Source of the DNA: Octopus vulgaris
Taxonomy: Eukaryota
Length of the DNA stretch: 64,000 bases
Direction: 5' to 3'
Assembly (NCBI GenBank): GCA_951406725.2
Contig: OX597825.1
Span: 36,518,001-36,582,000, forward strand
The notes beneath the pieces are model-generated. The model had not been told where the DNA came from and searched no databases. It was given only the letters and a program-made list of their open reading frames with translations. A program made the position numbers and the translations under genes. Shown piece by piece: positions 35,910 through 36,923 of the stretch; within the stretch, counting starts at the first letter, position 1, and each line of letters begins with the position of its first letter.

Positions 35910-36310
35910 AAAATAAATTTCTAAATCTCTCGTAGAGACATGTACGGTGGTGGGGCGATAGAATGTTTGTATACTGTCAATCTAACACGAACGTGACAGT
36001 AGGGGGTACACCACCGCTGTATAGCCCTAGGAAGCATCGAACGCCTCCTGATGGCTTTGACACATTTTTCACTGTGTCGCGTTCGATGCTTCCTAGTGCT
36101 ATACAGTGGTGGTGTACCCCCTACTGTCACGTTCGTGTTAGATTGACAGTATACAACCATTCTATCGCCCCACCACCGTACATGTCTCTACGAGAGATTT
36201 AGAAATTTAGTATTTCTTATTTTGATAATCAGTGAATAGACTTCACTGAATTATAGATATATACAATACAAAGTTGAGACAAATATCGCCAGCTGACCGG
36301 TGTCTGCTAC

Positions 36311-36355
36311 TCTAGGCCGATGAAGGACAACGATCCTGAAACACGTGTCCCTAGA
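36311..36355 (+). ncRNA. Type I hammerhead ribozyme (U4C core), unit 1
   Basis: tctagg-CCGATGA-agga-caacga-tcct-GAAA-cacgtg-TC-cctaga. Confidence 0.82.
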
Positions 36356-36673
36356 TGCAGTTCCGGCGGCCGGGGGTGTTTGTCTCCCCTTCGTAAATGT
36401 ATATAAGGACACAGGGGAAAATGTGTCAAAGCCATTAGGAGGCGTTCGATGCTTCCTAGGGCTATACAGCGGTGGTGTACCCCCTACTGTCACGTTCGTG
36501 TTAGATTGACAGTATACAACCATTCTATCGCCCCACCACCGTACATGTCTCTACGAGAGATTTAGAAATTTAGTATTTCTTATTTTGATAATCAGTGAAT
36601 AGACTTCACTGAATTATAGATATATACAATACGAAGTTGAGACAAATATCACCAGCTGACCGGTGTCTGCTAC

Positions 36674-36718
36674 TCTAGGCCGATGAAGGACAACGATCCT
36701 GAAACACGTGTCCCTAGA
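36674..36718 (+). ncRNA. Type I hammerhead ribozyme (U4C core), unit 2
   Basis: Identical to 36311-36355. Confidence 0.82.
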
Positions 36719-36883
36719 TGCAGTTCCGGCGGCCGGGGGTGTTTGTCTCCCCTTCGTAAATGTATATAAGGACACAGGGAAAAATGTGTCAAAGCCATCA
36801 GGAGGCGTTCGATGCTTCCTAGGGCTATACAGCGGTGGTGTACCCACTACTGTCACGTTCGTGTTGGATTGACGGTATACAAC

Positions 36884-36923
<40 letters not shown>

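Follow-up and report, generated by a model that had tools for sequence, protein, structure and literature searches.

Introduction

The closest described relatives of the repeat reported here are the metazoan non-LTR retrozymes of coral, mussel (350-390 bp) and axolotl, which are short non-coding repeats with a type I hammerhead ribozyme (HHR) (PMC7229834; see also PMC4209133). As described there, these elements have a GC content below 50% and a strongly self-paired circle, a short stem III with a palindromic loop, target duplications of more than 4 bp, and a co-occurrence with Penelope-like elements (PLEs). The octopus family that we analyze shares each of these traits (45% GC, z of -7.5 for the circular fold). 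It differs from them by a C in place of the conserved U at position 4 of the hammerhead core (U4C) and by arrays of at most about three units in our sample; its defined internal ends, tail and inverted arms are not among the features given in the accessible text of that source, and its cleavage and circles are predictions only.

The reverse transcriptase (RT) behind animal retrozymes has previously been argued from co-occurrence and from similarity to PLE pseudo-LTRs (pLTRs). Vertebrate retrozymes have been proposed to be PLE derivatives, and no mollusc is found among the 35 species as they are described there (10.64898/2026.07.22.740005). The octopus family agrees with this proposal, but the frog case rests on co-occurrence and pLTR homology whereas ours is built on insertion anatomy, with pLTR homology not found. 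Like our family, PLEs of the Penelope, Poseidon, Neptune and Naiad groups insert at AT-rich or (TA)n targets and start RT at two internal points, and their copies form partial tandems with an inverted copy on the 5' side and a tail at one end. In the literature, the tail measures 30-40 bp and is optional or often one-ended, and insertion is biased toward (TA)n (PMC8557442); rotifer PLEs produce target duplications of 8-10 bp (PMC3846280). The purified protein of a lizard PLE nicks both strands of AT-rich DNA, and its RT starts from two internal positions, one at either boundary of the tail, in an AC-rich loop (PMC11167929). In that in vitro system HHR cleavage is dispensable, HHR mutants have no effect on insertion, and unprocessed RNA is the main substrate (PMC11167929).

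The U4C substitution has been reported as a rare variant of a viroid hammerhead, where it lowers activity considerably in vitro and is sufficient in vivo, the viroid being still infectious (Ambros and Flores 1998, cited in PMC3088659); PMC3088659 was the only paper returned by a whole-word search for U4C and hammerhead. In our case the same change is fixed across two subfamilies of a genomic element. The words "Octopus" and "cephalopod" are absent from the main text of PMC7229834, the available portion of the octopus repeat annotation paper (PMC13282606) does not mention ribozymes, and our literature searches of article texts returned no cephalopod or U4C retrozyme. While the retrozyme class is already known, what stands out here is unusually direct evidence on the enzyme that mobilizes the family, together with a core variant that has become fixed and a site-specific element that is probably a hyperparasite.

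Results

The window carries a 2.2-unit array with an inverted arm

The window, by which we mean the whole 64-kb stretch of Octopus vulgaris DNA that was analyzed, had been read from its sequence as holding a 363-bp tandem repeat of about 2.2 near-identical non-coding units, flanked by TA tracts and preceded by an inverted partial unit. All of these elements were recovered (Table 1). The array comprises 2.2 copies with a period of 363 and 98% matches, adjacent units differ at 9 of 450 compared positions, and the inverted arm (165 nt at 35914-36078) is 98% complementary to 36408-36572. We number the unit from the first base after the cleavage site; on this scale the left end of the window's copy matches cleanly to position 223 and is degenerate to about 234. 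The longest open stretch in any frame of the circular unit is at most 99 codons. An endless ORF on the circle (363 = 3 x 121) was rejected, as stops occur in every frame and the period varies from 360 to 369. A TATA-like word at 36399-36405 (unit 50-56) is kept in all subfamilies, and may be a promoter or merely a part of the long helix.

Table 1. Features of the 363-bp repeat and its flanks in the window
Feature	Position	Strand	Remark
(TA)n target tract, left flank	35871-35906	.	repeat scan
Inverted arm, unit 59 to ~234	35904-36078	-	clean match ends at 35914 (position 223); last ~10 nt form the long ("tailed") end and are slightly degenerate
Direct arm, 813 nt: unit 93-363, a full unit and 1-179; terminates at the short end (179)	36079-36891	+	
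Long helix capped by HHR 1 (extended stem I)	36258-36405	+	pairs covary across subfamilies
HHR 1, type I	36311-36355	+	stem I 36311-36316/36350-36355; predicted cleavage after 36349
HHR 1 inner parts	core CCGATGA 36317-36323 (U4C at 36318); stem II 36324-36337; stem III 36341-36348	+	
HHR 2, sequence identical to HHR 1	36674-36718	+	U4C at 36681; predicted cleavage after 36712
Putative 363-nt cleavage-to-cleavage monomer	36350-36712	+	predicted
55-nt "tail" (unit 180-234) between the two family-wide insertion ends	36529-36583	+	second copy at 36166-36220
Unit 296-312, target of an ORF1-only retroelement, empty here	36282-36298 and 36645-36661	+	occupied in other copies
(TA)n target tract, right flank	36889-36918	.	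repeat scan

The hammerhead has a U4C core and covarying stems

A motif scan of both strands of the 64 kb returned four hammerhead-like matches, two of them in the 363-bp repeat. The latter are type I folds on the + strand, lying within a repeat unit of the 150-450 bp range; one HHR per unit had been described, and only two of the 2.2 units contain one. The 6-bp stem I, the GUC site and the palindromic ACACGTGT stem III that had been described are all present, together with a stem II of 4 bp, and the four hairpins named in the sequence-only reading were all found in the unit. The long helix capped by the HHR forms with a z of -5.7, with none of 200 shuffles equally good, and the circular monomer folds at -130.6 kcal/mol against -88.8 +/- 5.6 kcal/mol for 100 shuffles, with 66% of its bases paired. 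The minimum-energy fold of the hammerhead swaps stem III for other pairs (-14.6 vs -11.9 kcal/mol for the active fold). The suggestion that the palindromic stem III permits dimeric HHRs is in line with a predicted 8-bp intermolecular duplex of -11.7 kcal/mol. Two more hammerhead-like motifs in the window, at 26510-26562 and about 26870-26900, both on the - strand, are of the PLE pLTR type and lie one to each side of a TA tract.

The core of the repeat, on which the sequence-only reading is silent, has CCGAUGA instead of CUGAUGA and thus falls outside the canonical pattern (CUGANGA...GAAA). Rfam reports no hammerhead in the window repeat, either at the gathering score or at E<=10, and the HHR call therefore rests on our own motif scan and on covariation. 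Exact 24-mers across the genome carry C4 in 385 and U4 in 12 of 397 matches. C4 is part of a CpG, and 3% of T is within the range of other CpG sites. We considered and rejected the U4 copies as active ancestors within subfamily A, since 3% fits CpG decay and single insertions contain both states. Among the rows listed for the contigs of four runs labelled as four organisms, no C-to-T change at the C4 base is present at 5% or more.

Covariation was scored on 17 units from five subfamilies over the 12 pairs of the HHR. Pairing is kept in 93.6% of cells, with two-sided changes in 7 of the 12 pairs, a level that none of 500 shuffles (which ignore relatedness) and none of the slid controls reaches. 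In 9 of the 17 units the basal pair of stem II is disrupted; the core purines are invariant. In a midpoint-rooted tree the two C4 subfamilies group together (100/97), and they differ by compensated stem changes and by different stem III near-palindromes. From this we conclude that the hammerhead fold was kept after U4C arose.

The family is dispersed and its arms are short

Searching the 2.8-Gb genome with the unit gave 2495 candidates, of which 40 were scored. An exact 23-mer of the 3' domain occurs 1858 times; all 97 occurrences on one contig (C1) were retrieved and resolved into 71 insertions, from which we estimate roughly 1,300-1,400 insertions bearing the exact 23-mer genome-wide. The multi-copy family that had been proposed is thus confirmed, and it is dispersed, not a satellite. 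Being tandem, multi-copy, non-coding and apparently devoid of an LTR structure, it conforms to the description of retrozymes. On C1 the arms have a median length of about 160 nt, 15 of 114 exceeding one unit, and at this length most copies lack any HHR. The longest direct run is 1017 nt, and the window's copy is among the longer ones.

Sister subfamilies account for 308 exact matches, use the same two insertion ends and have the canonical core, which was found in 28 of the 28 cores read in subfamily B2. Their units span 350-366 bp, with the canonical core in B1-B3 and U4C in A2 (loci L118-L147, L212-L241, L178 and L181). Still more distant relatives of the unit are located beyond PLE ends in L281 and L294.

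The family had also been called young, which holds in part: segments inside one insertion differ by a median of 2.3% (59 loci), against 5.3% to typical copies, and this internal divergence lies below that to the nearest other locus in only 12 of the 59 loci. The values are consistent with each insertion having a single source and an age equivalent to a few percent divergence. They are compatible with a circular or a multimeric template alike and stop short of proving a single template molecule.

Insertion anatomy is that of Penelope-like elements

Two fixed positions inside the unit, 179 and 234 nt downstream of the predicted cleavage site, serve as the ends of the copies. Of the 71 insertions on C1, 42 have a longer arm that terminates at 234, 25 have one that terminates at 179, and in 4 it terminates elsewhere; the corresponding figures are 24, 32 and 3 for 59 insertions picked by a full-unit or HHR match. 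All 32 two-ended insertions with defined ends on C1 combine one 179 end with one 234 end. The same holds for 52 of 52 pooled two-arm insertions, in which the tail is present at one end only; this set takes insertions with exactly two arms and both ends within positions 173-181 or 222-243, excludes those with more arms or an undefined end, and scores the window's left end as 234. In B2 the tail is one-ended in 8 of 9 scorable two-ended insertions, while L226 has two short ends. Site 179 lies 3' of an AC-rich unpaired stretch.

An inverted 5' arm accompanies the partial tandem in 39 of the 71 insertions on C1 and in 37 of the 59 of the match-picked set. In the 52 pooled insertions, the inner ends of the two arms are at most 30 nt apart (modulo the unit) in 25 cases, a result reached in 1 of 10,000 permutations; such close ends are found mostly among short arms, usually with an overlap of 0-4 nt or a few extra bases. 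Simple snap-back copying was considered as the source of the inversion and is not favored, as in 19 of 26 close cases it is the 234 arm whose inner coordinate is larger.

Targets are AT-rich. A TA tract adjoins the 3' end in 41 of the 71 insertions on C1, and at sites other than TA a duplication of at least 8 nt spans the insertion in 16 of 30 cases, compared with 46 of 870 pairs of mismatched flanks. Apart from two doubtful ones, the 16 duplications measure 9-14 nt and are AT-rich. One-armed copies have mostly TA-free 5' flanks, which may reflect target deletions, or else TA tracts made by RT stuttering. In some loci (L014, L017, L023, L184, L133-L134) a (CT)n run directly adjoins the short end and separates it from the (TA)n tract, representing either a compound target or RT stuttering.

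These features (two internal ends, a one-ended tail, inverted arms, (TA)n targets and 9-14 bp duplications) match the published anatomy of PLEs, from which we conclude that a PLE protein made the insertions. The use of a Penelope-like RT suggested by the sequence-only reading is in this way borne out, and on the strength of the genomic footprint we regard it as very probable that a PLE protein mobilized the 363-bp family. The family differs from PLEs in that it has no ORF, a tail of 55 nt rather than 30-40, and no homologous autonomous partner in the sample.

The same anatomy bears on the possibility that the array is a DNA-level repeat, a minisatellite or a MITE-like foldback, with a hammerhead-like motif arisen by chance. 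Its inverted ends and TA flanks do look MITE-like, and Rfam recognizes no hammerhead in it. Against this, the 3' ends are fixed, 5' truncation is variable, the two ends are unequal, arrays stay below three units, the stems of the HHR covary and the core purines do not vary. We consider this explanation very improbable and largely refuted.

Arms read through the predicted cleavage site

On C1, 34 arms cross the predicted cleavage site and ten stop at positions 1-25; four of these stop at positions 1-5, two of them with read-through letters in the flank. The absence of a pile-up of arm ends at the cleavage site indicates that the template was a circle or an uncut multimer, and the cleaved linear monomer was rejected as template on the same grounds.

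The sequence was not found in any run on record as RNA, which weighs neither for nor against expression. The contigs of four runs do not distinguish a circle from tandem DNA and carry no information on level or strand; a go-back joint in the contigs of run X1 fits a circle or tandem DNA alike.

Candidate partner elements and the pseudo-LTR question

The genome is rich in PLE ORFs that are intact and nearly identical to one another. The family of L028 has a 753-aa ORF with RVT_1 above and GIY-YIG below the cut-off. Young autonomous families (L061-L075; L272-L274; L275-L294) have intact ORFs of 753, 781 and 784 aa and an open frame of 1214 codons; most carry minimal hammerhead-like motifs, many of the U3-A8 type, and they end in (TA)n. 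In one PLE family a short and a long end lie about 50 nt apart.

The sequence-only reading had named the case in which the unit would be only the pLTR of a coding PLE. An autonomous PLE of this kind, yet to be found, would make our loci 5'-truncated or solo-pLTR insertions, and it would account for ends, tail, inversions and target duplications of the PLE type. Frog retrozymes are indeed related to PLE pLTRs (10.64898/2026.07.22.740005), and the PLE families sampled are a part of the total. Yet the unit has no match in these families: terminal similarity was found neither in two fully read ones (from L028 and L175), nor in the family of L187, nor at the GIY-YIG 3' ends of 20 further loci in 8 groups, in a comparison whose match list is complete for family A and for B1 covers the matches listed. 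Beyond the ribozyme, arms continue with a further unit rather than an ORF, and the sampled PLEs mostly carry minimal HHR-like motifs rather than the canonical-type fold. In the family loci no RT and GIY-YIG ORF lies between pLTRs. PLE protein matches occur in just 6 of the 152 loci (duplicates included), as neighbors, targets or one direct junction. We therefore judge the pLTR explanation unlikely. At L175:1442 the long end of the unit abuts a young PLE fragment of the same orientation, a junction that may reflect either a template switch from PLE RNA or a secondary insertion.

An ORF1-only retroelement inserts next to the hammerhead

Many copies of the unit contain an element of ~1.7 kb, often in tandem, which lacks an RT and whose only ORF encodes a zinc-knuckle protein of 453 aa. 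The nearest clusters of this ORF are CCHC and ZCCHC3-like proteins. Used as a query, the ORF finds 30 loci, 17 of which (15 sites) are in or adjoin the unit. The 5' junction falls at unit 305-312 in 14 of the 15 sites, and the unit resumes at 296 in 10 of them, a position just 5' of the hammerhead (L243-L257, L260, L020, L086, L200, L203). Two further relatives (L120, L128) occupy the corresponding place in sister subfamily B, while the remaining 13 loci are more distant relatives with other fixed-looking flanks. Divergence of the element and of its flank is weakly correlated (rho 0.46), which does not by itself exclude co-transport. From these junctions the element, presumably Tx1-like, is probably a site-specific hyperparasite of the unit; our literature search found no retroelement that targets a hammerhead repeat.

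Discussion

We propose that the 363-bp family is a non-autonomous retroelement of the retrozyme type, for whose copying a PLE supplies the RT/GIY-YIG protein in trans. A multimeric locus would be transcribed, and its U4C hammerhead would cut slowly, probably as a dimer or with the help of a protein, giving monomers that would be ligated to circles. As the DNA footprint suggests and by analogy with PLE enzymology, the PLE protein would introduce nicks about 10-13 nt apart in the two strands of an AT-rich target and prime cDNA inside the RNA at the fixed sites 179 and 234, one per DNA end. The cDNA would extend back across the ribozyme junction, the insertions themselves showing such extension over up to 2.8 units. 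The two arms would then meet in head-to-head orientation, overlapping slightly or not at all; in other copies the second arm would be absent, leaving a 5'-truncated insertion. The window's copy would be one such event, with a 234-type inverted arm and a 179-type arm of 2.2 units within a TA tract. Because the unit departs from the canonical core, and its cleavage and circles are predicted only, we class it as a variant rather than a plain non-LTR retrozyme. We assign a probability of roughly 0.55 to this model as a whole, with a working ribozyme and circles. The in vitro weakness of U4C, the result with HHR mutants of the purified PLE system and the lack of cleavage in 8 of 9 predicted frog retrozyme dimers (10.64898/2026.07.22.740005) count against it, as do the failure to find a partner PLE with sequence similarity among those sampled, the small share of arms longer than one unit and the two short ends of L226.

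The same PLE-driven passenger could instead have a vestigial hammerhead in the U4C subfamily, with uncut read-through multimers as templates, tandems arising by template jumps, and no circles. Near fixation of U4C (385 vs 12), with 3% of T at the level of other CpG sites, would be consistent with such a loss, as would the lack of a pile-up of copies at the cleavage site, the absence of the HHR from most copies and the preference of the purified PLE for unprocessed RNA (PMC11167929). It fits less well with compensated changes that keep the stems paired inside the U4C clade, with a stem III that is still a palindrome, and with a U4C viroid that remains infectious (PMC3088659). Conservation of the stems is not decisive here, since the long rod may have been kept for reasons other than catalysis. 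We hold a vestigial hammerhead to be possible, though doubtful.

Returning to a working ribozyme, one may tentatively picture a lineage that fixed the attenuating U4C, perhaps keeping circles or multimers intact as RT templates, and that transposed on under selection for the ribozyme fold, following the two-site rule of PLEs with one site per cut end, and parasitized just 5' of its hammerhead by the ORF1-only (Tx1-like) element. PLE chemistry can be read directly from the footprint of each insertion, which also excludes cleaved linear monomers as the template. With its two mapped start sites, the 363-nt RNA would make a compact substrate for an in vitro PLE assay, one that makes the origin of tails and inversions testable. 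Fixation of U4C offers a natural experiment on the level of ribozyme activity that these elements require. It also suggests that searches based on the canonical core undercount retrozymes.

Other features of the window

The remainder of the window holds several other repeats. A MITE-like element at 39282-39895 has 186-nt inverted arms (98%) and adjoins a TA tract. Fragments of a LINE endonuclease and of a mariner-type transposase lie on the - strand at 31182-32138 and 40263-40784, respectively. A 30-bp tandem array of about 45-52 copies (14128-15690) has an open Thr-rich or His-rich frame, and a large low-complexity region at 47600-50500, whose halves resemble mirror images, has 143/145-bp tandem pairs at 48164-48455 and 49724-50017.
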